From: Tubulanus polymorphus
Taxonomy: Eukaryota > Animalia > Nemertea
Assembly (NCBI RefSeq): GCF_964204645.1
Contig: NC_134030.1
Span: forward strand, 16,988,110-17,052,109
Reading direction: 5' to 3'
DNA: 64,000 nt
Shown here piece by piece: positions 45,601-64,000 of the stretch. Every line of letters begins with the position of its first letter. The stretch's first letter is position 1. The notes under the pieces are model-generated. The model made no database searches. It was not told the origin of the DNA and saw only the letters and a program-made list of their open reading frames with translations. The position numbers and the translations under genes are program-made.

Positions 45601-47275
45601 GTCTGCCTGTCAGCGAATTGTTTCTATCAGTTTTACACTGTAGGTGCTTGCAGACGGATTTATTCAAATGTTGTTCATAACGCAGTTTGTGTTTTACACT
45701 GACTGGGGAGGGGGTGTAGACTTGTCACTGCAGGGTTCAAAATAAAAAATAGCCAAGATCTTATTTCTTGAAAGCACAGTGCGAGTGAGGGATTTTCTAG
45801 ATGAAAATTACCAGTTAGCCTGCATATTAGCTACGCAAACTGTGCCGTTTGAAGATACTGTACTCTTGGGGTATCCTGAGTTATAGTTAGCAGTAGGTCT
45901 AGTGACAAAGGTGCTGTAAACACGGGGTAAGGTGAGCGGTATCTTGACTCATGTAGTGAAACAAACATACTTACAAATTGACGGACAAAATGAAAAGAAA
46001 ATCCTGTACATGATGTGTGCAGTAGAACAAAAAATTTGATTAGAAACTCAAACTTGTTTTCACTGGCAAATGAATGACCATCTCACCACTACTGCTAGTC
46101 AATTTTAAACATCTGTCTTCCATCATATGGATCTAATCAACCTCTTGTTGAAATTAGGTGCCTTTGAATTTAAAAAGGGCAGAATTTTGGGGGTCGAATG
46201 GAGGGCTTTTTACAATACCTTCCATTTCCTCTTGCCCCAACAGATTTTCCATATTATAATCTTCCCTGTTTCTGTTTTAGATCATCAACCGCGGTCACTT
46301 TTACCACGACTGAACAAACAGTAACAGACGACACGACTGTCGCCCCAGATGTAGAGTCAACCGGTGACATTGTCATCGATGACAATTCATCAGCGCAACA
46401 ATCGATCATCACAAGCGTCCCAGTCGCTGTTGCTACAGACGATCACTCATCAGATTTGCACAGCGATAGTCAAAGTATGTTTTAGAAATTAGAGCTAGCA
46501 CCTGGCTTTTAGAAACAAGATTTATCAAATTCAAATTATCCAACTATGACCATTGATGAACCACTCTAAGGATTATATGTCAAGAAATGATACCTTGTTT
46601 CTCCTAATCCGCCGCATCATTTTGAAAAGTGCAGTAAAATTTGAAATCCAGTTCATTTCTATAGCTGCTGGGTGTGTCATTGAGAAATGGATCATGAGTT
46701 TCAATAAAAAGTAATGTGTAGAATAGATAGGCGGCCTGCCTGTTCAACGCAGCAGGAAAGAGAAACAAGATATCAATTTAGAGTATGAAATATTTGCGAC
46801 TATATCCTAACAGTCATCTTAAGGAATACTGATGTTGTCCTCATTGAAACCATTGTTCCTTGTGTTTTTGATTGGATCCTTCATTTCATTTTCCTATTTT
46901 CTGTTTTTATAACAGAATTTATCAAATTCCCTTTGTATTATATTTTCAGCTGCTGCGAATCAACGACGAATACAACCAATTGTCTGGGACGTTGCCCCGG
47001 CAACGACAACAATGACATCGACCACCCCCATGACGACAGCTCCGATTCAGCGGATCCAATCAATTCAGACACTCGATAGTGGGAATCCACGCCAGTCATC
47101 GCAGATGAATCAACCGGTGCTGCAGCAACAACGAATGCACAACAATCAATCGATTATGGTACATCGCGGCGGGGCTCACAGAGGTCGCGGGGGAACCGCA
47201 AGACGCAGTCGACAATTCAGCGGTCCTAGACGCGGTGGTAACCGTGGTAACCGTGGCAATATGGGGCGATATTAA
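668..47275 (+). CDS. TPR: Nucleoprotein TPR (Tpr/Megator/Mlp1 nuclear-basket coiled-coil protein), multi-exon, 5' part lies before the window
   Basis: Exons traced by hand with GT-AG ends and consistent phases: 668-841, 1626-1766, 2238-2348, 3998-4205, 4478-4572, 12970-13024, 13113-13210, 13367-13576, 13910-13987, 14184-14294, 14664-14782, 17746-17893, 18257-18394, 18717-18901, 19130-19234, 19478-19519, 19610-19700, 19966-20289, 20824-21093, 21460-21533, 22914-23113, 23211-23327, 24365-24461, 33755-33824, 36460-36537, 37246-37410, 37794-37998, 41879-41988, 42074-42174, 42781-42869, 43549-43792, 46281-46474, 46950-47275. TPR motifs: [73 protein letters not shown], acidic block, [32 protein letters not shown]-terminal RGG/RGN tail. 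Confidence 0.95.
2399..2903. mobile_element. Non-autonomous TIR element (hAT-like MITE)
   Basis: TIRs CAAAGCTGCCAACCC / GGGTTGGCAGCTCTG, flanked by direct repeat AATTAG. Confidence 0.65.
3149..3760. mobile_element. Tc2/pogo-like MITE
   Basis: TA-CCGTATTTTCCGG...CCGGAAAATACGG-TA with subterminal AATAAGCCGA repeats; a related copy in the opposite orientation is at 40153-40738. Confidence 0.85.
5276..12831 (+). mobile_element. Degenerate DIRS1-like tyrosine-recombinase retrotransposon
   Basis: Left ITR (5276-5400) is the reverse complement of 12680-12790. ICR at ~12528-12625 is complementary to both outer ends. Remnants: RT ([14 protein letters not shown] ~9500-9670) and YR ([15 protein letters not shown] ~11170-11310), with many stops and deletions. 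Confidence 0.88.
5426..6696 (+). mobile_element. Helentron-associated (HINE/DINE-1-like) non-autonomous element nested in the DIRS copy
   Basis: TTTTTAGCCCACTTGGG 5' subterminal repeat with GGGACT-TT-AGTCCC hairpin; (GTCC)n microsatellite; 154-bp tandem units (anchors 6140, 6294, 6448, 6602); 3' CCCAAGTGGGC and CTAGTTTT end. Confidence 0.8.
13367..13576 (+). CDS. TPR: TPR exon with the TPR/MLP1/MLP2 domain core
   Basis: taacag|AAC...GAG|gtaatt; encodes [20 protein letters not shown]. Confidence 0.95.
14320..14580. repeat. ~88-bp tandem repeat, about 3 diverged copies
   Basis: Recurring aattttaccagtct...tatttcacaaactcttact.agtatttg units. Confidence 0.65.
15787..17320. repeat. Dispersed non-coding repeat family with a local partial duplication
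   Basis: 15787-16655 matches 21605-21850 plus 22660-22880; 15985-16315 is repeated at 16982-17318. Confidence 0.65.
21870..22654 (+). mobile_element. Second HINE-like family with ~145-bp satellite array (about 5 units)
   Basis: 5' T-run, (GTTC/GTCC)n tract, units anchored at cttcaaatcgctact (21951, 22097, 22242, ...), CCCCTAG end; splits the repeat family above; related 5' fragment at ~45311-45520. Confidence 0.72.
23498..24036. mobile_element. Tigger/pogo-like MITE
   Basis: TA-CAGTAAAACCTC...GAGGTTATACTG-TA with repeated AGTGAACACCTCT subterminal motifs. Confidence 0.75.
26953..29168 (+). pseudogene. DIRS gag-like ORF1 (frameshifted)
   Basis: N-terminal Cys/His cluster ([13 protein letters not shown]), Ser/Arg/Pro-rich middle, basic C-terminus overlapping the pol start; split over several ORFs. 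Confidence 0.7.
29160..31198 (+). pseudogene. DIRS pol: reverse transcriptase, RNase H and Dam-like methyltransferase domain
   Basis: RT: [29 protein letters not shown]. RNase H: [30 protein letters not shown]: DLFAT, DAFSLDW, YAFPP, LVAPCWP. Frameshifts near 29700 and 30765. Confidence 0.93.
30673..31920 (+). pseudogene. DIRS tyrosine recombinase, C-terminally truncated
   Basis: [46 protein letters not shown]; similarity stops after ISRDTV (~31825), with no HxxR or catalytic Tyr. Confidence 0.88.
32807..33378. repeat. Tandem duplication of a ~287-bp unit
   Basis: cttaaatttttaactatttctac...aaaaaggtac occurs twice head-to-tail with high identity. Confidence 0.85.
34299..34918. mobile_element. 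hAT-like MITE
   Basis: TIRs CAGAGTTGCC / GGCAACTCTG; near-identical, internally deleted copy at 44690-45178. Confidence 0.8.
38805..39030. mobile_element. Penelope-like pLTR remnant with inverted duplication
   Basis: ~58-bp inverted repeat (38805-38862 vs 38936-38993) brackets the hammerhead. Confidence 0.65.
38869..38910 (+). ncRNA. Minimal type-I hammerhead ribozyme (Penelope pLTR type)
   Basis: ACAC-CTGAGGA-T-GATCTC-tagggt-GAGATC-GAAAC-GTC-GTGT: CUGANGA and GAAA cores, 6-bp stem II, stem I ACAC/GTGT, GUC cleavage triplet. Confidence 0.8.
39684..41854 (+). mobile_element. HINE family-1 copy with nested TIR element (~39715-41380) and nested Tc2-like MITE (40153-40738)
   Basis: TTAGCCCGCTTGGGACTTTAGTC start resumes as GGGCTATTGCGTTCAC at ~41383; ends CCAAATGGGC...CTAGTTT; inner TIR CTGCGATTTTTAAAGTGGTG / CACCGCTTTGAAAAACGCAG. 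Confidence 0.7.
42074..42174 (+). CDS. TPR: TPR exon with conserved C-terminal VPSTPTL/DGFAEA motif
   Basis: cag|AAT...CAG|gtaaaa; encodes [33 protein letters not shown]. Confidence 0.93.
43829..45314 (+). mobile_element. HINE family-1 copy with nested hAT-like MITE (44690-45178)
   Basis: Colinear with 5426-6696, including the satellite units; the MITE duplicates GTTCTA of the host unit. Confidence 0.82.
46950..47275 (+). CDS. TPR: TPR last coding exon (RGG/RGN-rich tail)
   Basis: ttttcag acceptor, phase matches the previous exon; RRIQPIVWD...[14 protein letters not shown]. Confidence 0.88.
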
Positions 47276-48058
47276 ACTGTGCCTGCATTTGAAACGTACC
47301 GGTACTCAATTCAAAATCATGGATAATTTGAAAATATGGTGCGGCGTATCATTAGTTACTAATATTTCACTGATCAGTCAACAATACTTATCATATTGCA
47401 TTTTCCACAAATAGAACTTTTAAATATAAGGAAAATTGGTAGTTTATGTAATACCTTGATTTCTGAGCAGAAACTATACTATAATGTCATGTAAATTTAT
47501 TGAGTTTGGTAATTTGTGTTGGATCTCCTAATCTTGAAATTGAGTTTAGATGGGTTCTGCTTCCCACACGGATGTAGAGTTCCTGAGGAGCGTGGTTAGT
47601 TTTAGCCCAGAGTTTACCCATGGAGTCCGATTACTGGAACCAAAGGTGGATCAGTGTTGACACCGTGCTGTGCTGCCGCTATGCTCATCGTTGGGGGAAA
47701 TTTCGAACACGACTCTGTATTGAAAGGTGCTTGCTCACTACACCGCAGGCTGCAAATTTTTTTCACAAAAGAGTTTCTGCCATTTTGTTCGCAAAGAGGA
47801 TGCTCTGCTGTGTTTGTAAAGACGATAGATACACTGAAACCACTGAACGCATCGTCAAGAGCTCTGTTGAGTAGGCCTTCATTTATCCAGTGTAAACTTG
47901 TCAAATAGAAAACCTCAAGACATCGATCTCGCCCTATGCTGCATTATTTTAGTAAACGCTATTTTCGATAAAATATATTGTGACGTCATAGTTTTCGATA
48001 CTAATTCCAACGGATTTTGTAGATCCCAGTCGAGACCGGGCACAAAAGTACTGTTTCG

Positions 48059-48475
48059 TGTTGGAAGGGTCCGAACCTCCGAGAATATGACACTAACAAA
48101 ATAGTTACAGCTACAGATATACAACTTTATTTTCACTCACATGCCACAAGCATTCATAATGTCTCCCTTTCTTAAAAGCAATGTCAGAATTACAACAAAT
48201 TACTTTAATCCAATAAAATCACAACTTGATAATTAAGCAACATTCTCATATTAACTAGATTTTATATAATTAGTGGTAGTCGTGAGATAGTGTTACTATC
48301 TGATGTGCTTTTCGGTACTGCCTCGATCTGCGGACGTGACGATTCCTGTATATTCGTGGCCTCGGGTATTAATGGACTCGGTGCCATAGATTGATACTCT
48401 TGGATGTGTACCCGGCTTCGGCGGTATCAGCGGCCCATCACATTCAACTAGGTATGATCGGAGTAATTGGTAAAT
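48059..48475 (-). mobile_element. Gypsy-like LTR retrotransposon 3' remnant
   Basis: Minus strand reads RSYLVECDG/(fs)GR*YRRSRVHIQ (integrase C-terminal motif), then purine tract AAGAAAGGGAGA and a ~100-bp LTR-like segment with AATAAA ending in CA. Confidence 0.5.
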
Positions 48476-48546
48476 CAGGGGTTAAGACCAGAGGTCCTGA
48501 GGTCAACACACCACTCATCACCACAAGTTATTTTTTTTTCTTATAA

Positions 48547-48873
48547 ATGGGAGATAGAAAAGCATTCTTAGCAACAATAAATAACAGCATAAAACCAGCA
48601 AAAAACAATTTGAAACAAAAAAGTTAGTCGATGTTACAAAAGAAATTGAATACAAAATATTGAAATTAGAAAAAATTAAAAACTAAATATGGAGATGAAA
48701 TATCAGCAAATTTAAGTAACTGTAATGTTAGTACAATGCGAGAATTTAAAGTATTTTTACCTGATAAATGGGTTTCATTGAGTACAGAGGAATTAAAAGA
48801 TTTAGAAGGATTCAAAATAATCTATCATGGAAAAAATGAAGATGGTCATCATGATTTAGAAATTGTTGATTAA
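48547..48873 (+). pseudogene. Small viral ORF, possible OB-fold ssDNA-binding protein (copy 1, frameshifted)
   Basis: MGDRKAFL.../KKLVDV..YKILK..TKYG..VFLPDKW...EIVD*; fold is inferred from the TKYG...VFLP pattern only. Confidence 0.5.
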
Positions 48874-51800
48874 AAAAATAAATTGATAATAAAATTAAAT
48901 AAATATCAAGAATCCGAAATGACTTATCTGGACAATTTAATTGATCGAGGCACTGAAGAGAACGGTCGATAGTGTGTTTGCTATATACAGTGATTGCGCG
49001 TAACAACTAGCTGCGCTCGGATAGATCGATGTGGCGAGGCACTGACGAGAACGGTTGATAGCGTGTTTGCTATATACAGGGGGAAGGTGACCGCGCTCGG
49101 ATGGACCCGGTTCATTTAATTGTTTCAAAATAGAAATATTGTTAAAATGAATTAAAATTATTTTTTTGCTTTTTTAGATCATTCATCTCCACAAGTAATT
49201 TTTTTCCCAATAAATGGGAGAAGTGAGTACCAGACAGAAAACATTGATGTTAATAAAAATCAATATTATTGTGCGTACTGTAAAAAATTCATCGATAAAT
49301 CTCAAAAATCGCGCCATGAAAAAACTGAAAATCATATAAAAAATGTTATAGATTTTGAAACTTCAGAAAATTCCAATGAAAGAAAAGAACGATTAGAAAA
49401 TATGAATGTGGATGAAATAAAATGTGAAGTTTGTAATGAATTTATAACAAAAAGGAATTATAAAAGACATCTCGAATCACAAAAACACCAACAAAATTTA
49501 AGTAATAATATTTTAGGAACAGATTATTTTGATGATAAATCTCAACAAGTAAAAAAACCAGTTTCAAAAACTAAATCTATTTCAAATAAACCTTACATGG
49601 AAAATGTTAGAAATTATATCGATTCACTAGAAATAAAAGATACAATTGAAATTTTAGAAACATTACGTAGTAAAATTGGTCCTGCATCTATTATATTTAG
49701 ATTTTTTAAAGGAGCAACAATAGAGGATTATAGTAAATTTATTGAAATCATGGAAAAAATAATAGATTTTGTTACAGATGTTGAATATCCAAATATTAGT
49801 ATTTCTGGAAAAGTTAGTTTTATAAAATCAGAAGTAAAAATGGGGTATAATATTGAAACACACTGAAGAAATAATTTCAAAAACACAAATAAAAGAGAAA
49901 TTATAAAAAATATTTAATGAATTTAAACGACATATTGAAGAAAGATATTTTGAGGGTTCTGGCTTATCATTGAATGAAATTATATTTTTAGATTTAAATA
50001 TTTATAATAAAAAAGAAATAAAACATCAAAAAGTAATAAAATGTTTAAAAATGATTCAAACTTTACAACAGAAAAGGGTATTAAAGCATCGTCTTATATT
50101 AAATTGCCAATTAAAACTATTGCAGTAATAGATGTGCAGAATGATGATAATAAATGTTTTCTGTGGGCGAAAATGTTTTAAGTTGCTTACACCCAGCAGA
50201 AGATATTACGCATCGTTTTAGTTTAACAGATTATCGGAAATACGAAATATTATAAAAAAATTGCTCAATATCCAGTATCTAAAGATGATTCTTAAAATAG
50301 AAAAAGTTAATAATTTAAAAATAAATGTTTTCGAATTAATGCAATTACCAAAGACAAAAGGTGAAAATATTAAAGATACATTAGAAGCTTTATATTTAAC
50401 AGAATATTATGACGATAAAAATGTTATAGATTTGTTATATTACGAAAAAGATGAAAATGAACATTATATGTGGTTAAAACAAATTGATTTATTCTTTAGA
50501 ACAGAAAGTGATCATCATAATAAAATTTATCTATGTAGAAAATGTTTATCTTAATTTATGACAGAAAATGCGTTACTACAACATAAAGAATTATGTGATA
50601 ATAAAGATTTTTGCAAATTAATAATGCCAACAAAAAAAGATTGTAAGTTGAAATTTATTAATCATAAATTTAGAAATATTCCTCCATTTGAAATTTATGG
50701 GGATTTTGAATCGTTTAATAAAGAATTAACTGATCAAGATAGAAAAGAAATATACAATAAAAAGCAATTACTAAAATCAATGGATAAAGGAAATGAATTA
50801 AATGAAGACATAGTTCAAGATCCACCAATCATAAATACAATTAAAACAGTTCATCAAAGAGCTGCTGCTTATGGAATTTATATAAAATCAAATTATCCTG
50901 AATTATATGAAGGTCAATATATTTCTTTTAGAGGTGAAGATGTAGTTAATTAATTTTGTAATAAAATTATAGAATTAGAAAGTGATTTTGCACAATTATT
51001 TAACAAAAATAAAAGAATAGTTATGACAAAAGAAGATGAAATTGATTTTAATTATGCAAGTCATTGTTGTTACTGTGAAAAACGTTATTATTCATTTGAT
51101 AAAAAAGTTAGAGATTATGATCATTTAAATTCAAAATATCGTGGAGCTGCTCATGAAGATTGAAATTTACAAGCTAAAAAAGTATATTTTGTACCAATAT
51201 TATTTCACTATTTATCAAGATATGATACTCATCTATCTATATAACAATTATCAGGAAAATTAGGTGCAATTAATCTAGAAACAAAGAATATAATGCTATG
51301 AATTATTTAAATGTAAGAAAATATGATTTTAAACTACTAGCTAAAACATTCTGAAAATTATATTTCATTTCAATTTGGTTGCATTCGATTTTTAGATTCT
51401 TATAGATTTTTAGCAAGTTCATTAGATAATTTAGCAAAAAGTTTAGTTGATAATGATTTTGTAATAACTCGACATTATTATCCAAATGAACAAGATTTTA
51501 AATTATTGAGATATAAAGCAATTCCTTATTCATTTTATAAAACACATGATGATTTAATGTAACAGAATTATTAAAAGAACAATTTTATGATCAACTAAAA
51601 GAGGAGTATGTGAAAGATGAAGTTTTTAATAGAACATGAAATATTTGGAATCATTTTAAGATAAAAAATCATGGTGAATTAGTAGATTTAAATTTAAAAT
51701 CAGATGTTATGTTATTGGCTGACATATTTGAAAAATTTAGAGAAGTTAATTTAAATCATTTTAATGTTGATCCTTGTTATTTTTATTCAAGTCCTGGTTT

Positions 51801-51949
51801 AACCTGGCAATATGGTGTAAAATATACAAATGTAGAATTAGATTTATTAAAAGAACCAGACGTGGTTTTATTATTTGAAAAATCAATTAGAGGTGGAATT
51901 AGTGGTGTTATGTGAGATAGACATTTTAAAGCAAATGAATATAAATTAT

Positions 51950-54240
51950 TTTTCGAGTATACCAGGTTCGATCCAAACTACTAACAACGTACTAACTGAC
52001 TGACAGTACTAACAACGAGGCGTATTTCTCATAGTGAACTAACTCAGTTTTGACTTTATTTCCCCCTTTATAGTTACAGAATCAGCTGAACAGTAAATTG
52101 AACAAACAAGCGTGAACAGCAGTACAGGTTGTTCGGTTGTTCGCTTTATAATAAGGATTACAGGATATTACAATCTACAATACATAAAACATAATACACA
52201 CATATATATTCAGTTATTACTATTTCCAACATCCTCCCCGCCGCAAACGATGGCTTTTATCCTATCAGAGGCGAGTTTTGCTGCACGTCTCGAACTGCGT
52301 CTCGTAGCTCTATCTGGAACCGCGTTGGGAATGATGACGGTCTCCTCCAACTCGCTTTCACTGTTGATCTCCAGCGGATACAGTTTGTTTATTGGTCTAG
52401 AGGTTCGTCCTGAAGTTGTGCGAATAATTGAGGAACGAACTTTGTTATCTAGTCCGCGGTTTAGGTTTTCCACGATCGCTAATTTCCAATTGATACGCGG
52501 TGTATCTGCGTGCACTTGGACCAAATCGCCTATTTGATCACTTCGTTATAATCACCTGATGACAAGTGCCGCTCTCTTAGTGCCGTCAAATATTCATGGT
52601 GCCATCTAGCCCAGAAGTGCTTTATCAACTGAGTACGACGAACGAAACGCGTGTTCAACTGAGTAAACCCGTAATCTGGATCACTCAAATCGTCGTCATC
52701 CACGAGAGGATGAGGTAAACCAGTCAATCGGCGACCATGCAGCAAATGGGAGGGTGTTAGGAGGTACTCAATTCATCAACAGATACATGTGCTCTTCCTA
52801 ATGCCTTTTTAAGACAAGACTTTACAATACCCACCAGACGCTCCCAAAAGCCCCCATGCCAAGGGGCACGCTTTGGTATGAAACGCCATTCTACCCGTTT
52901 AGACGCCATTAACCGCTTAATTTCGGATGACTGTAGTAGCTCGTTCAATTCATTTGAAGCGCATGTATATGTTGACGCATTATCACTGATAACAACTCTC
53001 GGCAACGACCTCCGTGCAGAAAATCTGCGAAAAGCTTGGATGAATGAATCAGCACTAAGATCAGAGACTAGTTCAAGGTGAATGGCACGTGTTACCGCGC
53101 ATGTGAATAGGCAAATATAAACTTTTGCATAACCCGAACTTGTTTTGACATTCAATGCCCCAGTATAATCGACACCCGAGATTGAAAATGGTGGAGATTC
53201 ATTCACCCGTACCGCTTGTAATGGAGCAGGATCTGGTAAGGCTTGCTTAACAACAGCCTGCAAGTAAAACAAGATCGTAAGACAGAATTCACACACTGAC
53301 GAATACTAGGAATCAAGTATTTTTCTCTGATGAAATAAATAGTTTCACCCGGACCCGCATGCATGATTAAACAATGCGCATATTTTATGTACAAGCGAGT
53401 AAAATGACTGTATTTCGGCAGCAAAGCAGGGAATTTTGATGAACTTAGCAATTGAGAGTTATGAATTCTCCCCTCGGAGCGCAAAACCCGGTTTTTGTCT
53501 AGAAACAATTTTAATTGTTTCGCAATAGCGGGTAATTTCCCTTCAGATTCAATAACGTGAATAACTTGGCCATATTCTTTCTTTTGGCAACTAATCAACC
53601 ATAGTGTTTCAGCCGACTCTAATTCGTTTACATCGATTATATCAGTATTAATGAGCCGCTTCATACACTTATCAACGAACCGTTTTACGTAAGCCGTAAC
53701 TGTAAGCAGTTTACTCAATGAACTGTAACTTTCAATATCAATAATTTCAGAAATGTCATTTAGAGTATCTGTACTAAGCGCACAAGTTTCTAAACAATTA
53801 GAAATACAATCTGATTCATCACCAGTATTCAAACGGTCCTGATTAAAGTTTGTATACGAATTAGTCACTTCTATCAAATCTGGACCATACCACCATAATG
53901 ACGATTCTTTCAGAATATCTATTGACATGCCTCTCGTCAACAGGTCAGCGGGATTCTGACTTGTTTCACAATAGTGCCAATTAGTCAAAGCAACCAGTTG
54001 TCTGATTTCCGATATCTTATTTGAGACAAATACCGGAAGTTTCTTAGTCGAAAACAGCCAATGTAACACTGTACTATTTGACTATCGGACCAATAGTGAA
54101 CATCTAAGTCCAAATCTGTCAGTGATTCTACAATGAATGAAGACAAACGCGCAGCTGAAAGTGCTGCTCGTAATTCAAGTTCTGGTACAGTGCGTGATTT
54201 GATGGGCGCTACTCGGTTTTTCGACATAACAAGACTAACG
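51950..54240 (-). mobile_element. BEL/Pao LTR retrotransposon fragment (RNase H, integrase, 3' LTR) inserted in polB
   Basis: SKNRVAP..VPELEL, YWSDS, NPADLLTRG, HAG..C..C, GVDYTG, TRAIHLELV, SDNA, PWHGGFWERLV, FWARW..EYL, RPINKLYPLE; PPT GGCGGGGAGGA then TG-starting LTR from 52231 down to ~51950. Confidence 0.93.
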
Positions 54241-55040
54241 CTATATATTGACGCCAATAATTTATATGGTTGGGCAATGATGCAACCTCAACCATACAAA
54301 AATTTTATATTAACAGAAGTTGAAAATGATGATAAAACTGATTGGGAAAGTGCAATTATGGGTTTAAAAGATGAAGCACCAATTGGTTATTTCTTTGTAG
54401 TTGATTTAGAATATCCTGATAACGTAAGATTTAAAACAAGAAATTTACCATATTGCCCAGAACATTTAGCTGATAGATGATAGTTATTTAAGTGAATATC
54501 AGAAAAAAATAAAACCGAAAGATCATGTTTTTATAGAAAAATAAATATTAACATAAAATAATAAATACAATCATATCGTTCATTATAGAATGTTAAAATT
54601 TTATCTAAAACAAGGAAAATTAAAGAGTACATAGATATATTGAATTTAATCAATCGAAGTGGTTAGAAAAATATATAGATTTCAATACTCAACAGAGAAC
54701 CATATCAAAAACAGATTTTGAAAAAGATTTTTTTAAATTAATGAATAATAGTTTGTATGGAAAAACATGTGAAAATATTAGAAATAGAAATGATATTGAA
54801 TTAGTAAATAATTCTGAACGACTGAGACATTTACAATCAAGTCCTAGAAACTTACGAAATAAAAGATTTGAAGATTATTTAACAGCAGTATAATTAAAAA
54901 GAACATCAATGAAATTTAATAAACCAATATTTATAGGTTCAACTGTTTTAGAAATATCAAAATTATTAATGTATGATTTTTATTATAATGTTTTACAACC
55001 GCTTTTTGGGGAAAAACATATTGAAATATTATATTTTGAT

Positions 55041-56096
55041 TCTGTAACAGCTGATACTCCAATATTATTGAAATATAATAATCAAATATTAATAAGAAGA
55101 ATTTCAGAAATAATTCCAAAACAAAATAAATCTTATATTTTATATGGTAAAAAAGAGTTAATACAATTAAATGGATTAATGGATGTTTGGACAAGAAATG
55201 GATGGAAAAAATTAAAGAATATAATTAGACATAAAACAAATAAAAAAATTTAGAACTAAATTAGGGTTTGTAGATGTTACAGCAGATCGTAGTTTAATTA
55301 AACAAAATGGTGATGAAATAAAACCAACTGATATAAAAATTGGAGATGAATTATTACATAAAAGATTTTATCTAGGAATGAATCATATGTCATTTGATGA
55401 AATAATTGATAATATTATAACATAGAACCTGAAACATTTGAAGAAAAAGAATATATTTTCAAAGGATTTTTTATGGGAGATGGTTCAGCAGGTGTGTATA
55501 ATTATGTTGGTGGCAATAGATATTGTTGGTATTTATGCAATCAAGATTTGAAATTATTAGAAAGAATTAAGAAATACTGTGAAGAAGTTTATTCACATAA
55601 AATATTTAGAATCGTGGATCATATGAAATCATCAGCAGTTTATAGAATACTTGTGAATAATCCAAAAGATTTTGCAATAAAATATAATGATAAATTCTAT
55701 ATTCATGCAATAGTTAAAAGTAATACTTCTACCAAAGAAGAGATAGTGCCAGATTATGTATTAAATGCAAAATATAATCTAAGAAAATGGTTCTTCATTG
55801 GATTCTATGCTGCAGATGGGCAGAAAAAATATACGAGATCTCCAGTAATAACATTTGCGCAAAAAGGACAAGTTTCTATATTAGGATTGTATATATTAAG
55901 CAATTCATTAGGATTTAATATGAATATTGAATTAATTAAATCTAAACCAAATTGTTTTAATTTAAGACATGTAGAAAATGAACTAACTGAAGAAGTTAAA
56001 GATTTGTTTGAAACATCCAACCCAACTGACTATGTTTATGATTTATCAACAGATGATGGCACATTTAATTGTGGATTTCCATTAATCCTGGTCAAT
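55041..56096 (+). other. Intein with LAGLIDADG homing endonuclease in PolB motif C (degenerate)
   Basis: YFD|SVTADTPILL (block A); VDVTADRSL (block B, His replaced by Arg); GFFMGDG and FIGFYAADG (LAGLIDADG helices); DYVYDLST..LILVN|TDS (blocks F/G, Asn then Thr+1); two compensating frameshifts. Confidence 0.9.
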
Positions 56097-56209
56097 ACTG
56101 ACAGTTACATGCTAAAAATCAAGACAAATGACATAACAAAAGACTTAAAAACATTAAAACATCATTTCGACTTTAGCAATTACCCAAAAGATCATGAATT
56201 ATTTTGCAA

Positions 56210-56330
56210 TGATGACTATTAGGATATAGTCGAAACGTTGAAATGAACTACTATCTAGAAGTTAAATTTTCGCACTTTTCCGTTATAATTGTGGGATTCT
56301 CTCTACATCGCGTCAACACGGATATAGTGT
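56210..56330 (+). mobile_element. 5'-truncated Penelope-like pLTR/hammerhead fragment truncating polB
   Basis: TGA-T-GACTAT-taggat-ATAGTC-GAAACGTT has the same layout as the 38869 hammerhead but lacks the 5' core; polB similarity ends here. Confidence 0.55.
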
Positions 56331-57390
56331 TCTATCAATCGTGATCAACTTCATGAACCACCTTAATGCAATTTCTTAAAGAACCAAGGATCAAGTTCTA
56401 TTAATGGGAGACTGCAAAGAAGTTAACTAAGAAAAGCTCTCTGTCGCAGTGTCTGACAAACACATCGCAAGCTAAGTCTGTGAATGGATCTGTACCACTG
56501 GATGGTTCCAACATGTCGACCGTCCTACCAGATATAGAGGTAACGACACGCCCAACATCTTGGACCTCGTCATAACCAATCAAGAAACAGCCATCAACGA
56601 CTTCGTGTTCATGCCTGGGATCGGTAAACGCGACCATCTCGTACAGATCATATCTGTCAACTGCACAGTCCAAAACCAGAAGTGCCAACCCAGCACGAAA
56701 CGCTGCTACCATTAACCAAATTTCAAAGCCACGAACAACTCCTTACTGAAGACCCAATGGACGCCCAATTCAGCTGACCAAACCATTCAAGATTTAAACC
56801 TCATATGTACAATCTTTATTGCATCCCGGAATGAGAATGATTATCTTAATCTTACATAGTCTTTATATACATAATTGGGAAAACTAGATGTCAGAAAGTT
56901 TGTAGAAATCAGGACTCACAAACTAACACCTAGTGACATGTTTGAGAGACACAATTAATGATGAGTACCGACTAGAGCTAATTACTATGTATATATATTG
57001 AGTAGCTATATATATGATTATGAAATATGTGACTTATATCAGGGTGACACGTGCCAATTGGTGTTGAAAGAAAATAGAACTAAAACACAAAAGATGGCGA
57101 TGCTACTCTTACTCACAAAGTGACAAAAGACTACAACCGTTACGTCAAAGCGAGGTACTACTATAACATGCAACGAGGCTAAAAGCAACTACGAATCGCA
57201 ACTATCGGCTGAAATATCAGCTAATATCTGCTAACCCTCAAGCCTTCTGGAGCTCTGTACGCTCCACAACCAAGAACAAGGATTCAATTCCTCCTTGAAG
57301 GAAAGCAGGTGGATACCTAGCAACGTCAGACCATGACAAAGCCTCACTCTGGAACGACCACTTTGCATCGTCAACAACGTCAACATCGCC
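56330..57390 (+). mobile_element. CR1/L2-like LINE ORF2 fragments (APE endonuclease and linker)
   Basis: ~56500-56640 reads WFQHVDRPTRYRGNDTPNILDLVITN..GIGKRDHL; ~57130-57370 reads NPQAFWSSVRS..DKASLWNDHFAS. Confidence 0.8.
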
Positions 57391-58737
57391 AGACAACCCT
57401 GTAAAGGGAAATATTGGAAAATGGTCCTCTCCGAACTTTTTTTGCAGTGTATGTATAGTTGTATTCCCAGATATTGTTGTAAAAAGTATTATCTAGTTTT
57501 GAATTAGTTTAATGAAAAACTGAATATGGGGGAATTTTTACGAGAGGAATTCTTTCTGGGGGACATTTACCGGGGGATTTTTACCTGTTACCGTACAATT
57601 CCACTCTTAAAAAGCTTCAAACACTGATATATTCAAATATGATAATTTTATTTATCTGAAAACAATCCAGTATCTACCTTAGAGAACGATCGCAGGTAAC
57701 CGGTCAGGGTAGAGAAGCGCCAAGACGAACTTAACGGCCGAGCGTCCGTGACCAGAGTGAGCCACGAGATATTGGGGGATGATCGGCATTGTCAGGCAGG
57801 CCTGGGGTGGGATGCGCTCCGCCCTGGCCAAGACACACGACTGCATAATGATGGACAAGAAAGACACCGATGGCTATACCAGATGGGTCATTGCCGGGTC
57901 AACAAGAACCGCGCCTTCTGTCTCCCACTTGGACATTGGTGACAAATATACTACTTGTGAAACCTCGACAAAGAATATCCGAAGGGACTGCATTACCATC
58001 TCAACATCGAATGTGATAATACTTCTCCAGATGCGATCTTATTCATGCATACGCAGACCACATGTTTTGGCTAAAGTAAGTAATAACATTAATGAACCCA
58101 CGTGATCTAGCGTGGGATTGACAATTGAACCTCTGCTTGGGCATAAGGAACCACAGAGTGGGAGAAAATAACTCAATAGAAAATAAACGCTCATCAGTAG
58201 AATTGTATAATAATGTAATTGTCAATTTTAACTAGGCAAATTACAGCAATTAACACATAGCACTGGTATGCCTAGCCTATAATAGTTAATTTAATTCCTT
58301 TTAACCATTTGATTGTCAACAATGAATAAATGAGAAAAATTCCACAATAAATTAGCCAACGATGCAATGTTCTTGAATAGTAGAGTAACGTTTCGGCAGT
58401 AATTAGAAGATGGCGTTTTCAGATCAGAGGTCGAGAGGTCGAGACACCACTCATCACAGCTAGGCTCTAGTGAGAACGGACGATTGCTCTGTGACACACA
58501 TATACAGTGAGTGCGCGTAACAACAACTGCGCGTGGATAGATCGATACAGTGAGTCTCTACTGAGAACGGTTATTAACGCGCGTGCTATTACTGTAGTAG
58601 TACAGTGATTGCGTGTCAACTGTACCCGGATAAATAGATGTTGTGAGGCTTGGGTGAGAACGGTTAATAGCGTGTTTGTTATATACAAGGGGAAGTAATC
58701 CCCACTCATCACCACAAGTAATTTCTTTTCCTAATAA

Positions 58738-59063
58738 ATGGGAGATAGAAAAGCATTCTTAGCAACAATAAATAACAGAATAAAACCAGCAAAAAACAAT
58801 TTGAAATAAAAAAGTTAGTTGATGTTACAAAAGAAATTGAACATAAAATATTGAAATTAGAAAAGATAAAAACTAAATATGGAGTGAAAGTATCAGCTAA
58901 TTTAAGCTACTGTAATGTTAGTACATCGCGAGAATTTAAAGTATTTTTACCTGATAAATGGGTTTCATTGAGTACAGAGGAATTAAAAGATTTAGAAGGA
59001 TTTAAAATAATCTATCATGGAAAAAATGAAGATGGTCATCATGATTTAGAAATTGTTGATTAA
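58738..59063 (+). CDS. Small viral ORF, possible OB-fold SSB (copy 2; needs a -1 shift at A AAA AAC)
   Basis: Near-identical to 48547-48873; ATG in ATAAATG context. Confidence 0.5.
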
Positions 59064-59240
59064 AAAAATAAATTGATAATAAAATTAAATAAATATCAAG
59101 AATCCGAAATGACTTATCTGGACAATTTAATTGCTCCGCATAGATGGTGCCATAAACAGCACCCACACAGTGATAGACAAAAGTAGTGAGATATTCAATT
59201 AATTAAAAAAAATTATTTTTTTTGCTTTTTTTCTAAAATA

Positions 59241-59609
59241 TTAATCCATTTTCTTTATTATCAATTTTGGAATTTCAGAAGTATTTTCATTTTTGATAGC
59301 AGTTATTTCAGAATTATTTATATCATGAATTTTATTTGATTTCTTATACAAACTACACCCAATCAAAATGAATACAATTACAAATCCAACTGTAAAATAT
59401 AGATATTTATCAAATATTCTATCATTAGAAGGAGTAGAAATAACAATATTTTCACTATTTTTATTAACATTTTTATTACTTATTTTTTCTTTTACAGCTT
59501 TTTTATATTCTTGTGATTTAATTCCTAATTGCCGAGACCATTCAATTTGTTTCTGAGTTCTCGGTTTTTTCTTCACAGTTAATTCCTTCACTTCTTTCAC
59601 CTCGCTCAT
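59241..59609 (-). CDS. Small basic viral protein with one predicted transmembrane helix
   Basis: KKKPRTQKQIEW; hydrophobic YLYFTVGFVIVFILIGCSLY; ATAAATG start. Confidence 0.65.
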   Translation of the reverse strand: MSEVKEVKELTVKKKPRTQKQIEWSRQLGIKSQEYKKAVKEKISNKNVNKNSENIVISTPSNDRIFDKYLYFTVGFVIVFILIGCSLYKKSNKIHDINNSEITAIKNENTSEIPKLIIKKMD

Positions 59610-60146
59610 TTATTATAGAAATATTTTTACTTTCAATATTTGAAAATGTTATAACCCCAGTTGATAATAATGTCATAAATCCGCCTAATTGAAATGATAA
59701 ATATCCAATCCATTTATTTAATTCAGTCATAACTAAATAATCATTTTTTAATCGGAATATAATCTATTTTCATCTTCAATTGGTAGTATATAATTACATA
59801 ATTTACTATAACCTTTTACTACATTTTCTGATATCGCGTCATTAATTCTAGCTGTTCTCGCGGATTCATAAATCTTAAATAATCTAATAATTTCATCTGA
59901 TTTCATTGTATCTAATTCATTATAAGTTAAATTTTTACCGACAAAATTTTTACATTTTCCAGATGCTATTAATATTTCTAATTGATGTTTACAGTAAAGA
60001 TAATATTCATAATTATTATTTGTTGTAACATTATTTAAAGCACAATCATCTGGAGTTAATTTGTTTTCTGTTATTCCTAAATCATCTAAAGTTTTTTCAA
60101 TTGGAACATCACCATTTTTAGATTTTATTTTCTTTTCACCCCCCAT
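59542..60146 (-). pseudogene. Polinton hypothetical protein split by a 1-nt frameshift
   Basis: ORFs 59748-60146 and 59542-59730 join as ...LYSD(L)KNDYLVMTEL... if one T is restored at ~59750. Confidence 0.6.
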
Positions 60147-60171
60147 TTATATAACAAAAAAATTAATTGTG
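60144..60171 (-). promoter_or_regulatory. Example of the recurring viral upstream motif ACAA(G/T)T(A/T)A-Tn-Nx-ATAAATG
   Basis: Also at 48522-48549(+), 49190-49217(+), 58713-58740(+), 63454-63481(-). Confidence 0.6.
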
Positions 60172-60177
60172 TGATGT

Positions 60178-60435
60178 TGCAACTAGAATTTAACTAGAAT
60201 GTAACTAGAATTCAACTAGATTAACAAGCTAGTTGAAATATTTTTGTTTTTGTTTATTTCTTGTTAAATCTAGTTGATTTTTGTTTCAACTACTAACAAC
60301 TAGAATTCAACTAGAATGTAACTAGAATTAAACTAGATTAACAAGCTAGTTAAAATATTGTTAAATCTATTTGATTTTTGTTACAACTACCAATAACTAG
60401 AATTCAACTTGAATTCAACTAGATTAACAAACTAA
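60178..60435. repeat. Intergenic array of 11-bp AACTAGAATDY units inside a duplicated ~120-bp block
   Basis: aactagaattt-aactagaatgt-aactagaattc-aactagattaacaagctagtt occurs twice, with a partial third copy. Confidence 0.8.
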
Positions 60436-60441
60436 TTGAAT

Positions 60442-61050
60442 TTAAATAAATTCATATTTAAATGGGTGTTGTAATCTAAATAGTAATTTTGATCTTTTAA
60501 TATTTTTCAACTTATCCATATATTCATTATGTAAATCATGTGGAATAATATCATTTTCCTCAAGTGCATTTTTCATCGATTTTCTATCTTTATTGTAGAA
60601 TAAAACTAGAAATCTAATGTTTTCTCTAAAGTCTTTAATAATTGAATTATATTTTTGATTTAAAACCCATGTTGTTATCCCAAAATGTCTCCCAGAGAAA
60701 GCTAGATAACATAACTCACTTTCTCTAACTTTTGAATCATGTAAATTTGCGCAATCATCTATGATAAATAATGTATTTGATCCTTTATAAATATCAATTG
60801 CTATTTTTATACAATTATCTAAATTTTCTTTTACTGTTTTAGGATCTAATATAATAAATTTATTATTCCTAGTAATATTTCTATCATAAGTTTGATTAAA
60901 TTCATATGTTGGACAAAATAATACTATATTATCAAAATAGTTTTCATAAACAGTTTCTAATAAATTTAATATAAAATAAGTTTTTCCACAATTTGTTACA
61001 CCAGAAATTAACATATTATGAGGCTCAAATATGAATAATTCCTTATTCAT
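60442..61050 (-). CDS. A32/FtsK-like DNA packaging ATPase
   Basis: Walker A GVTNCGKT, Walker B FIIDD, GRHFG, LNQKY, RENI; intact 202 aa. Confidence 0.92.
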   Translation of the reverse strand: MNKELFIFEPHNMLISGVTNCGKTYFILNLLETVYENYFDNIVLFCPTYEFNQTYDRNITRNNKFIILDPKTVKENLDNCIKIAIDIYKGSNTLFIIDDCANLHDSKVRESELCYLAFSGRHFGITTWVLNQKYNSIIKDFRENIRFLVLFYNKDRKSMKNALEENDIIPHDLHNEYMDKLKNIKRSKLLFRLQHPFKYEFI

Positions 61051-62178
61051 TTATATATTTTTAATTTTACTTGATAATATCCATTCATTGAATTTATCTG
61101 GCCATCCAACCCATTTTACTAAAGAATATTTTTTTCTTTTAATAGTTTTTGTTTTTAATACTTTTTCAATTTTATATTCTTGTTCTAGATTTTCAGTAGT
61201 TAAACTTAATTCTTCTTCGTAAAAGTAGCCATCAACTTCTTCACCATCTAAATCTTCTAATTTATAGACATATGGTTTTGTTGTTATTACCTTTTTTATT
61301 TTATATATTTCTCTAGTAAAATTTCGATCGTATCCTTTATCAAATATCTTTTTATACTTAGAAATTCTAACATTTTGACCAACTTTAAATTTAGGTTCAC
61401 CAAAATCATCTACAAGAAATGCTCCATATAAATTATTCCAAACAATTTCAGCATTTTCAGGTTTTCTAGCATCAATAGGTTTCATTCCAATAGAAGAATG
61501 ATAAGAATTATTATATCCTTCTATCAATTTTGGCAAAACATCAATCCATTTAAAAGTATTATTCGCTGTAAAATATTTCCACATTCTTGTTCTTAATGTT
61601 CTATTAAATCGTTCAACAACTGCTGCTTTTTTATCCGATTTTGTTGAAAAATATTTAATATTATGATTGTCTAAGAGTTCATGAACAAGTGAATTATTAA
61701 ACTCTTTTCCAATATCAAATTGTATTTTTTCTGGTTTTAGTTCATCATCCGAAAGAAATTTTCTTAAAACATTTGATGTTTGTGCAGCATCTTTTCTATA
61801 AAGTGGGAAACTCCATACATAACGACTAAAAATATCAATTATATTCAATAACCACCAATAATCATCATTATCTTTCTTAACATTTTTCATATCAATTAAA
61901 TCTCCTTGCCACCGTTGATCTACATAACTTACCATAGTTTTACGAGTTTTATATTTTCTAACAATTTTTTTATGTGTTGTATATGTTGGTTGTTCTAACA
62001 TAAATTCATTTATATCTTTATATTTAACTAAATTTTGTGGGATTATCTTATCTAATTTATCTTGTTTTACTTTACGCCATATATTTTCAGTAGAAGAATA
62101 AGTAACCGAACTCTCAGGGTTGTAATATAAATTTCTTAAATATTGTTCTTTAGTATTAGGAGTTTTTTTACCACCCAT
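61051..62178 (-). CDS. Retroviral-type (rve) integrase with C-terminal chromodomain
   Basis: WQGDLIDM, IIDIFSRY, QFDIGKEF, VVERFNRTL (DDE); YKIEKVL..LVKWVGWPDKFNEWI; intact 375 aa. Confidence 0.95.
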   Translation of the reverse strand: MGGKKTPNTKEQYLRNLYYNPESSVTYSSTENIWRKVKQDKLDKIIPQNLVKYKDINEFMLEQPTYTTHKKIVRKYKTRKTMVSYVDQRWQGDLIDMKNVKKDNDDYWWLLNIIDIFSRYVWSFPLYRKDAAQTSNVLRKFLSDDELKPEKIQFDIGKEFNNSLVHELLDNHNIKYFSTKSDKKAAVVERFNRTLRTRMWKYFTANNTFKWIDVLPKLIEGYNNSYHSSIGMKPIDARKPENAEIVWNNLYGAFLVDDFGEPKFKVGQNVRISKYKKIFDKGYDRNFTREIYKIKKVITTKPYVYKLEDLDGEEVDGYFYEEELSLTTENLEQEYKIEKVLKTKTIKRKKYSLVKWVGWPDKFNEWILSSKIKNI

Positions 62179-62208
62179 TTATATATCCTTAATTTTAACT
62201 TTATATTT

Positions 62209-63456
62209 CTAATATTGAATACTATCTAATTGTGAATTTACAATATTTAATTGTGCGTCAGATATAATATAAATGTGCATTTTAAAATTTTTGATTCCTT
62301 TTTTCTTTTTCATGAATAATTGTATTCCATCTTTAGTGTTCTGTAGTTTTTTCCCACAACCATGTAATGAATTATCCTCTGTTGTTCTAAAATCTAACCA
62401 TAATGCATATTTATTGCCGGTATAATAATCAATTTGATTAATATTACAATTTTCAAATGATTTTACTTTTTCATTCATAAAATGTTTTCTAATTTCTGGC
62501 CATTGATCTATCATTCTCATTCCCTGACAAAATATTTTATTTGCTATTCCTTCGATAGTTATTTCTACTTTTGTTATTTCAGGATTATAATAATTATCAA
62601 CCTTTATTGCGCCATTAGAATATGTTGCAATTGTAAAAAATATTAATATACCTTTAATAGATCTTCTTGGGAAGTTAATATTCTCATTAATCATTTCATC
62701 ATTTGCATTAATAGTTACAGTTTTAAATTTATCAATATAATCATATAATGATGAAAATCCTTGATTGTATTGAGTTTGAATTGTGCTAGCAATATTTTCA
62801 TTAGTAACTGTGTCATATTCTAAACATATATTCGATAATTTATAACCCATATCTTTAACAACGCTAGATAATACAATTTCATTAACAGGAGCAAATGTTA
62901 TCTCAAATGTAATATCTTCTTGAATTGCGTATTTATATAAAGGTGCATTATTATTTATCAATTCAAAGTCTAATGGAATTTTATATTTGCTTCCATAAAT
63001 CTTTTTAATCAAATTATCTGTGGCACGAGTTACTATTGCGTCATTAGCTCCTGATCTTAATTTATTATGGTTTTCCGATTGAATACCCTGAAATATCATA
63101 TTATTTCTATTTTCTTTAGTTAACCATAAATCTTTATAATGCATAAATAAATTATAATCATCTAATGAGAAAACTGTTTCCGGACCAATCTTTATAGTTA
63201 ATTTTTTAATCAAATATCTTCCAACATTATCAACAACATAATTGTTATCATGGCCAGTTACTTTTATATCGGCTGATAAATAAATACTATTTGGAACATA
63301 AAAAGTATTTTGTGTTAATCTATGAATTCTAACATATAAAGTTTCACCAGGATTAATATTTGAAGGGTTATTAGTAATTATCTGATGTGATCTTTCTGCT
63401 TTAATAGCATTAGATATTCTAGAAATCTTAGAAGGACTTATATAACTCCCACTCAT
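62209..63456 (-). CDS. Major capsid protein (double jelly-roll, Polinton/adintovirus type)
   Basis: Intact 415-aa beta-rich ORF next to integrase and ATPase; NNPSNINPGE.L.V, KIPLDFE, YKLSNICLEYD, PRRSIKGIL, YNPEITKV, YALWLDFRT, HG.G resemble invertebrate Maverick MCPs (from recall, not a search). Confidence 0.85.
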   Translation of the reverse strand: MSGSYISPSKISRISNAIKAERSHQIITNNPSNINPGETLYVRIHRLTQNTFYVPNSIYLSADIKVTGHDNNYVVDNVGRYLIKKLTIKIGPETVFSLDDYNLFMHYKDLWLTKENRNNMIFQGIQSENHNKLRSGANDAIVTRATDNLIKKIYGSKYKIPLDFELINNNAPLYKYAIQEDITFEITFAPVNEIVLSSVVKDMGYKLSNICLEYDTVTNENIASTIQTQYNQGFSSLYDYIDKFKTVTINANDEMINENINFPRRSIKGILIFFTIATYSNGAIKVDNYYNPEITKVEITIEGIANKIFCQGMRMIDQWPEIRKHFMNEKVKSFENCNINQIDYYTGNKYALWLDFRTTEDNSLHGCGKKLQNTKDGIQLFMKKKKGIKNFKMHIYIISDAQLNIVNSQLDSIQY

Positions 63457-63480
63457 TTATTAAACAAAAAAATTAATTGT

Positions 63481-64000
63481 TTATTTTTTATTATTTTTTT
63501 CTTGATATCTTTTTGATATCATATTCACTAACCCAAAAATAATAGCACTTACAACTGTAATTAAAAATAAAATAATATGTTCAGCAGCAAAGTTAAGAAT
63601 ATTCCCAGCAGATTTCAATATAAAACCAACAATTGATGCAATAATTCCTGGTAATGCTGCAGCAGATTTTTTAGATAGTTCCCATAAATATTTTGCTAAT
63701 TTCTTTAAACCATCCTTAACTTTATCTTGTATAGAATTATTATCATTCGGGGGTTTATCCGGTTTATTGGGAGTAGGAGTAGATTTCAAAGCATTTGATA
63801 TTGCTAAACCAATTGGTGTAAATAACATAGTTACAGCTGTTAGAATTGAAAGAATTGTTATTCCTTCTAATTTAAATAATAACTTTATTCTATCTTTCAG
63901 TGATATTTCAGAATTTGGTTTTATCAATAAATCTTTAAAAATAACTTTTAATCTATTTATATTATAATCATATGATTTTAATGATAATTTAATTTCTTCT
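63481..64000 (-). CDS. Polinton membrane-associated protein (5' end beyond the window)
   Basis: Frame stays open to the window edge; hydrophobic segments GITILSILTAVTMLF, AAALPGIIASIVGFIL, HIILFLITVVSAIIFGLV. Confidence 0.7.
   Translation of the reverse strand, partial: EEIKLSLKSYDYNINRLKVIFKDLLIKPNSEISLKDRIKLLFKLEGITILSILTAVTMLFTPIGLAISNALKSTPTPNKPDKPPNDNNSIQDKVKDGLKKLAKYLWELSKKSAAALPGIIASIVGFILKSAGNILNFAAEHIILFLITVVSAIIFGLVNMISKRYQEKNNKK

Follow-up and report, generated by a model that had tools for sequence, protein, structure and literature searches.

A decayed LAGLIDADG intein at the Pol-c site of a Polinton protein-primed DNA polymerase, and its relatives in multicopy elements

In the window, by which we mean the whole stretch of 64,000 nucleotides that was analysed, the catalytic motif C of a Polinton protein-primed DNA polymerase (pPolB) is interrupted by an insert that is almost certainly a LAGLIDADG intein located at the Pol-c site. 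The account that we favour as a whole, and consider probable, is that this insert is the dead copy of a predicted self-splicing Pol-c intein, which is likely to have been homing among Polintons after one likely crossing from a giant virus.

Results

An intein in motif C of the polymerase

The insert is exactly 1056 nt long, a multiple of 3, and is flanked by the codons Y-F-D on the left and T-D-S on the right; motif C of pPolB is thus interrupted as YFD/TDS (the slash marks the junction throughout), at the position and with the length given in the initial annotation (Table 1). Since intein-free pPolB relatives aligned to the window match up to position 55043 and again from 56082-56097, the bounds of the insert are placed independently. 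The intein-free proteins P0056, P0057 and P0059 align with either flank (62-78%) and lack the insert.

The N-terminal residues of the insert are SVTADTPILL and its C-terminal residues are YVYDLSTDDGTFNCGFPLILVN. The closing GFPLILVN places the terminal Asn before Thr+1, and the junction residues are those of class 1 (S...N/T). The start, the LVN end before Thr and the two LAGLIDADG-like helices were all located as first described. The copy in the window is dead, as had also been proposed: its frame is broken twice, around 55250 and around 55413, and block B is read in a shifted frame with its His absent. The missing block-B His counts against the function of this copy and not against its membership in the intein family.

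Table 1. Features of the window discussed in the text, with the evidence for each.
Feature	Position	Strand	Evidence or remark
TAAATG at probable pPolB start	49211..49216	+	
Decayed Polinton protein-primed DNA polymerase gene	49214..56216	+	PF03175; tblastn with intact relatives
BEL/Pao LTR retrotransposon piece within pPolB gene	51960..54230, approximate	-	Peptidase_A17, Integrase_H2C2, rve, DUF5641; gap in pPolB matches
N-extein half of motif C (YFD)	55032..55040	+	
LAGLIDADG intein, dead copy	55041..56096	+	two frame breaks, block-B His absent; profiles, alignments
N-terminal splicing region, block A (Ser1, SVTADTP) to block B	55041..55296	+	TIGR01445 E 0.0014, under cut-off
First LAGLIDADG helix GFFMGDG	55464..55484	+	PF14528
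Second LAGLIDADG helix GFYAADG	55800..55820	+	sequence, alignment
C-terminal splicing region, blocks F-G (YVYDL ... GFPLILVN)	56031..56096	+	terminal Asn before Thr+1
C-extein half of motif C (TDS), Thr+1 nucleophile	56097..56105	+	
Short very-high-copy repeat truncating pPolB	56211..56345	.	depth ~3,300-3,600 vs ~5 beyond; loose ends 56211, 56344
Packaging ATPase, A32-like	60442..61050	-	PF04665 E 4e-13
Retrovirus-like integrase with C-terminal chromodomain	61051..62178	-	PF00665 E 4e-10, PF00385 E 8e-4
Probable major capsid protein, 415 aa	62209..63456	-	weak Capsid_N E 0.0095; inferred from size, position

When compared with domain profiles, the pieces of the window intein scored under the cut-offs (LAGLIDADG_3, 22.3 versus 22.5; intein_Nterm, 19.5 versus 24.5; Intein_splicing, 11.6 versus 35.8). 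The search with Hint and LAGLIDADG profiles that had been suggested was positive for the intact relative P0003, which scored above the cut-offs of PF14890 (37.7/35.8) and TIGR01445 (32.9/24.5), and also of PF05204 and PF14528. P0001 and P0005 match intein profiles with scores under the cut-offs. The C-terminal open piece of the window intein matched P0001, an intact pPolB containing an intein, with an E value of 3.5e-78 and 57% identity. This piece matched 12 intein-containing proteins among 593 candidates, five of the pPolB type (41-57% identity) and seven that are RNA-primed PolBs (30-36%).

Ser1, the terminal Asn, Thr+1 and the two DG helices are present in 18/18 full-length pPolB inteins, and the TExH motif of block B in 17/18; seven of these 18 are near-copies of one family and one has an internal stop. 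An AlphaFold model of P0002 built on a 60-row alignment had pLDDT values mostly of 84-97 across the intein; an earlier model, based on an alignment of 7 rows, had a pLDDT of 51 and was set aside. The top Foldseek matches of the P0002 model were TliVMA, PI-PkoII, PI-PfuI, PI-SceI and I-DmoI (E 8e-15 onward).

The insert could be conceived instead as a fused, unspliced nuclease domain, like the HNH and VSR inserts of Polinton pPolBs. Such inserts are on record in the accessible text of PMC10748475, and the window's own pieces stay under the intein cut-offs. However, the insert breaks the catalytic D-T-D itself and has complete HINT blocks together with splice-junction residues, and relatives pass the intein profiles and fold like homing inteins. 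We regard a fused nuclease as highly improbable. The initial reading of an intein at the Pol-c site of a Polinton pPolB is upheld by the YFD/TDS insertion and by the profile matches and folds of the relatives.

The surrounding element

The gene belongs to a decayed Polinton (approximately 48.5-64 kb), with pPolB pieces on the + strand and the ATPase, the integrase with its chromodomain and the probable capsid gene on the - strand. Of the Polinton gene set, pPolB, rve integrase, packaging ATPase and capsid are present, the capsid assignment being weak. Neither a protease nor a minor capsid gene was seen in the part of the Polinton lying in the window, beyond the end of which the element extends. 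No long inverted repeat was found in 46000-64000, and the right end of the Polinton is probably outside the window.

Across the polymerase part, the pPolB pieces are each 50-77% identical to P0056/P0057/P0059 by tblastn. The gene contains many stops and frameshifts, it is split by the retroelement, and its C-terminus is missing from about 56210. At the high-copy repeat that follows, read joints fold back or repeat, and a related 25-nt inverted match lies at 46794-46818.

The hexamer TAAATG opens 8/8 gene starts examined (48547+, 49214+, 58738+, 59609-, 60146-, 61050-, 62178- and 63456-), against a background of 26/433 ATGs in the element; with 7 of the 8 starts independent, the binomial p value is about 2e-10. 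Most of the eight starts have a T-rich or A-rich tract upstream, and the form is (A)TAAATG. TAAAT is given as the poxvirus late transcription start element in the accessible text of PMC4542343. The sequence suggests that the TAAATG gene starts resemble poxvirus-type late starts; they may instead mirror an A-rich translation context.

A direct duplication of 437 nt (95% identical) was observed between 48511-48946 and 58702-59136, each copy containing the start of the same small ORF, and beside it repeats are shared upstream, at 48462 and 58398. Together, the duplication and these repeats suggest that two Polinton ends lie here in tandem or nested. Between the ATPase and the next ORF, at 60175-60440, a CAACTAGAAT-like unit is repeated at intervals of about 117 nt.

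Elsewhere in the window, a DIRS-like retroelement with overlapping ORFs extends over 26900-31920, RT and RNase H being recognized by Pfam; its ORF 30652-31920, which we take to be tyrosine-recombinase-like, has no Pfam match. BEL/Pao and DIRS-like elements have a mainly metazoan range, and their presence makes it likely that the window comes from an animal genome. Coiled-coil coding stretches at 17735-18163 and 19882-20298 are probably host-gene exons. These stretches may resemble nucleoporin TPR, a resemblance for which no support was obtained from Pfam or the ESM Atlas (19882-20295 best 0.87, low recognition).

A family of pPolB inteins

By profile and extein searches, at least 15 pPolB clusters (90% identity) were found to carry the intein, whole or partial (P0001-P0005, P0090, P0153, P0160, P0169, P0170, P0173, P0176-P0178 and P0397), and the insertion site is identical wherever the junction is present. 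In every tree, the Polinton inteins lie on one side of one branch (FastTree support 1.0); this clade includes 13/13 Polinton rows in the 100-row tree (SH-aLRT 98) and 10/10 in the 59-row tree calculated under a site-heterogeneous model (support 100). Near-identical family members and partial inteins were left out before tree building, and the PolB inteins were clustered at 52% (from 274 to 99), with hand-picked subsets of 59 and 49 rows. For the extein tree, 59 columns around the insertion site were removed.

The window intein groups with that of P0001 (98), and the window extein with the empty P0056/57/59 (0.998). The possibility that a large virus recently passed its intein directly to the window pPolB was rejected, since the Polinton inteins all belong to a single clade and the one closest to the window intein (58-62% identity) is that of another Polinton.

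The pPolB intein family is alive elsewhere: relatives have intact ORFs, and the breaks of the window copy are absent from most reads of the same species. In run X5, the reads were unlike the window copy in 132/212 and 140/207 cases at the frame breaks and in 240/250 at the block-B codon, which indicates that the defects of the window copy are not common to most copies.

P0177, a Polinton-type pPolB with an intein, is annotated at its source as a protein from a bacterial symbiont MAG, and the intein-free pPolB P0058 bears the label Sulfurimonas; the two appear to be host or viral sequences binned with bacteria. The JGI data contained at least nine loci with a related intein, among them one pPolB and eight PolB. 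In IMG/VR, no confirmed relative was obtained (0/32 and 0/70 pattern matches).

Filled and empty alleles

The intein is carried by 5 of the 120 nearest pPolBs and is lacking in the other 115. On the extein tree, 17 filled tips out of 136 need 16 changes, versus a mean of 16.3 with shuffled labels; intein presence is clustered no more than by chance, on a set of tips that is biased, the filled ones coming from intein searches and the empty ones from an extein search.

P0005 is recognized as a pPolB by Pfam (E 9e-32); its extein has no BLAST match to P0001 or P0003, and its intein is 44-46% identical to theirs. An unalignable extein with an intein so similar requires transfer between distant pPolB lineages, whatever the place of P0005 in the tree; its position as outermost among the Polinton inteins was not rejected (p-AU 0.48). 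The separate comparison of inteins and exteins proposed in the initial annotation thus revealed disagreeing histories, both for P0001/P0005 and for P0001 and the viral PolB P0193: the exteins have no BLAST match and the inteins are 46% and 42% identical, respectively.

Intein-plus and intein-minus alleles, which it had been proposed to look for, were found together in three families, those of the window species, P0003 and P0176, the empty alleles being precise. In the window species, the mean depth in run X5 was about 5 over the flanks, 204 over the intein and 481 over the upstream extein. These depths correspond to roughly 40 filled among 100 copy-equivalents, an occupancy derived from depth bins with about 12% of the reads taken, an 80% likeness cut-off and a short flank. 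The empty junction at the exact site, with position 55040 joined to the C-extein, was present in 19 X5 reads and in one X1 contig.

In the P0003 cluster, 15 of 136 members were looked at, and the 13 that span the site comprise 7 filled and 6 empty alleles, 94-99% identical overall. On each side of the site only 6-7/11 residues agree in the empty alleles, versus 11/11 in the filled ones. Moreover, the empty alleles fall into three site haplotypes (YFDTDAM, YTDCDSM and YGDTDAM), whereas the filled alleles are uniform. In the P0176 cluster (15 of 121 members), five filled alleles were accompanied by one precisely empty allele, P0431, which is 99% identical and has an unchanged site; a precise loss and a target not yet invaded fit this allele equally.

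Cys replaces Thr at +1 in 35/65 empty pPolBs of the clade that holds 10 intein-bearing tips and in 0/51 outside it, a difference inflated by relatedness, which the count does not consider. Thr is found at +1 in all 14 filled tips having a C-extein. The change of the motif from DTD to DCD was observed in the P0070-P0161 group of intein-free pPolBs. Judging from these sequences, DCD in empty pPolBs is a possible escape from the intein endonuclease. Differences between filled and empty alleles focused on the site are predicted by flank co-conversion and by escape alike, and protein data cannot separate the two.

The distribution could also be explained by an intein that entered once, was inherited with the element and was precisely lost many times, without current homing, the site variation being due to recombination among Polinton lineages. 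This explanation agrees with the death of the window copy, with homing being only predicted, with the unchanged site of the empty P0431 and with intein subclades that partly track the extein subclades (P0160/P0177/P0178; P0002/P0003/P0169/P0170/L001). However, about 350 codons would have to be lost precisely on many occasions, given the 115/120 nearest pPolBs without the intein and its unclustered presence. Furthermore, both endonuclease helices are kept in 18/18 relatives, which argues for selection on cutting; the filled/empty differences are concentrated at the target site, and the intein is also found in P0005, with its extein unalignable to the others. Simple inheritance is in our opinion quite unlikely, and homing among Polintons is preferred.

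Relatives outside Polintons

The nearest non-Polinton relatives are Pol-c inteins of RNA-primed PolBs, with up to 42% identity and exteins unalignable by BLAST. Two of these RNA-primed PolBs are labelled 'viral metagenome', the viral nature of most of the PolB rows being deduced from Pfam and BLAST alone. The PolB locus L003 contains a P8 minor capsid gene (E 3e-24), WLM, an AAA ATPase and a nucleotide kinase, a gene set that we take to be giant-virus-like, and its intein end is G-F-P-L as in the Polinton clade. The G-F/Y/T-P-L end occurs in 18/18 Polinton inteins and in 50/238 PolB Pol-c inteins, and the site is YGD/TDS in 222/274 extracted inteins.

Free trees, rooted on topoisomerase II inteins and built with the archaeal Pol-c inteins and the Mimivirus intein left out, nest the Polinton clade among the Pol-c inteins of RNA-primed PolBs (support 99 for a clade of 25 rows). 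When the Polinton inteins were constrained to lie outside every PolB Pol-c intein, the cost was 17.5 lnL (p-AU 0.26), with tree searches that were unfinished; a quicker AU run gave p 0.66, its free search being worse than the constrained ones. The sister group of the Polinton clade differs between trees and the stem of the clade is long (0.19-0.41). The nesting among large-virus Pol-c inteins anticipated in the initial annotation is thus returned by the best trees, but the outside placement is not rejected. As for the exchange between a large-virus PolB and a pPolB that it proposed, the nearest non-Polinton relatives do reside in large-virus-type PolBs, but the jump was not made into the window pPolB itself, the Polinton inteins being one clade.

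That the intein crossed between the RNA-primed and protein-primed polymerase classes is well supported by the sequence comparisons; the direction from large virus to Polinton is likely but unproven. Because all sampled Polinton inteins form one clade, the trees point to one older crossing between the classes, followed by Polinton-to-Polinton spread. The target DNA differs from the large-virus sites at 6-9/18 bases, so that ordinary homing across the polymerase classes is not obviously feasible. For co-infection as the route of crossing, the TAAATG starts are circumstantial evidence.

The same mobile intein might have had another origin, passing from Polinton-type polymerases to large-virus PolBs, or reaching both from a shared unsampled source such as an archaeal PolB or a phage. 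The two AU results, the long stem, the unstable sister group and trees calculated without archaeal sequences are compatible with such an origin; in addition, the Mimivirus intein was placed with archaeal pol-c alleles by Ogata et al. (accessible text of PMC549080). On the other hand, the Polinton clade falls within the diversity of PolB Pol-c inteins in every free tree. Relatives hosted by PolBs greatly exceed those of pPolBs in number and diversity, the pPolB inteins appearing only as fragments among the 150 best representatives, and no tblastn match was found in 50,697 GenBank phage records. We consider this other origin unlikely, and a large-virus source is retained as the preferred one.

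The same intein lineage was also observed in topoisomerase II and at a second PolB site, SAN/SMY (P0171, P0302, P0421; P0175, P0284-P0293), often with two or three inteins a protein and in large-virus-type genes. At L007:4162-5650, a PolB intein of 480 aa, far longer than its relatives, occupies a long branch elsewhere in the tree; its end, FNCGFPLIIKN, almost matches the last block of the Polinton inteins.

Discussion

The site and the anatomy of the intein are those of known Pol-c inteins; new is the kind of host protein, a polymerase that is protein-primed and encoded by an integrating element present in many copies in a probable animal. According to the accessible text of PMC549080, the PolB intein of Mimivirus is a LAGLIDADG intein at the same site (YGD/TDS there, YFD/TDS here), and Pol-c inteins likewise have Ser1, a terminal Asn and Thr+1 within about 340-355 aa. 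Unlike these, the Polinton inteins form a clade of their own, are hosted by the protein-primed polymerase of an integrating multicopy element instead of an RNA-primed PolB, and reside in a probable animal nuclear genome.

A viral polymerase gene that brings its intein into a eukaryotic nuclear genome has been described for the endogenized polymerase inteins of Gallot-Lavallee et al. 2023 (PMC10710043). The cases in the accessible text of that study are viral-like DNA polymerases on algal and labyrinthulid scaffolds, and the words 'polinton', 'animal' and 'metazoa' have no occurrence in it. In contrast with those cases, the Polinton intein is carried by a multicopy element, of which both filled and empty alleles exist and many ORFs are intact.

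An endonuclease inside a Polinton polymerase is also known from the HNH/VSR inserts in pPolB2 (accessible texts of Jeong et al. 2023, PMC10748475, and Krupovic et al. 2024, PMC11161782). One sentence of Krupovic et al. raises the suggestion that intein invasions gave rise to these inserts, the word 'Hint' having no occurrence in the accessible text; in that of Jeong et al., the source for this sentence, 'intein', 'Hint' and 'LAGLIDADG' do not occur. Unlike the HNH/VSR inserts, the Polinton intein has a full splicing domain and splits a catalytic motif.

The fold is shared with TliVMA, PhoVMA, PI-PkoII, PI-PfuI and PI-SceI (Foldseek E 8e-15 to 5e-8). I-DmoI is superimposed on the P0002 model with an rmsd of 2.4 A over 175 columns, and PI-PkoII is matched in sequence with an E value of 2.9e-9. 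The solved homing inteins differ by their low identity (11-18%), by their other host proteins or sites and by their cellular hosts.

According to reviews, inteins are absent from metazoan genomes (accessible text of PMC8529194), and the eukaryotic inteins surveyed in that of PMC5784728 are from fungi, protists, plastids and large DNA viruses. Ordinary homing was thought implausible even between Mimivirus and archaea by Ogata et al. 2005 (accessible text of PMC549080). No description of a pPolB intein was found in the accessible texts of the literature searched, for example PMC11161782, PMC10748475, PMC12220804, PMC5718144, PMC3671162, PMC5784728 and PMC10710043, a scope outside which Repbase, InBase, subscription papers and supplements lie; the word 'intein' does not occur in the accessible texts of PMC8097293 and PMC8502044.

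From the chemistry of class 1 inteins (Ser1, block-B TxxH, terminal Asn and Thr+1), intact copies would be translated as a precursor. An acyl shift at Ser1, aided by block B, would be followed by transfer to Thr+1 and by cyclisation of the Asn, by which D-T-D would be rejoined. Since splicing rejoins D-T-D, the polymerase should be active only after splicing, and an imprecise loss of the intein would be lethal to the element. The two-motif LAGLIDADG domain is predicted to cut motif C of other Polinton copies where this site is empty, either in the chromosome or while free elements replicate, and repair from a filled copy would paste the intein with short flanks. Empty alleles may escape when their target site changes, one such change being the replacement of Thr by Cys in the catalytic motif. 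With less confidence, we suppose that the first crossing took place where a Polinton and a large DNA virus occupied the same cells, which would fit the TAAATG starts. The window copy itself would be capable of neither splicing nor homing.

A more far-reaching version holds that an active homing intein exists in animals, that it is giant-virus-derived and sweeps multicopy Polintons across unrelated pPolBs, driving DTD to DCD, and that Polintons are virophage-like parasites of large DNA viruses; we give it slightly less than even credence.

The finding concerns an intein family that resides in multicopy elements of what is probably an animal genome and has relatives with intact ORFs, although the gene that contains it is viral and not a host gene. 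It reveals that RNA-primed and protein-primed polymerases have an intein allele in common, although their own sequences can no longer be aligned. It also provides a natural example in which homing and escape of the target site can be followed within individual genomes, and in which selection appears to alter a catalytic motif. In addition, the intein is a molecular marker for the question whether the Polintons of animals parasitize large DNA viruses. If this is true, the intein and the poxvirus-type gene starts would record a virophage-like replication of animal Polintons on large DNA viruses.
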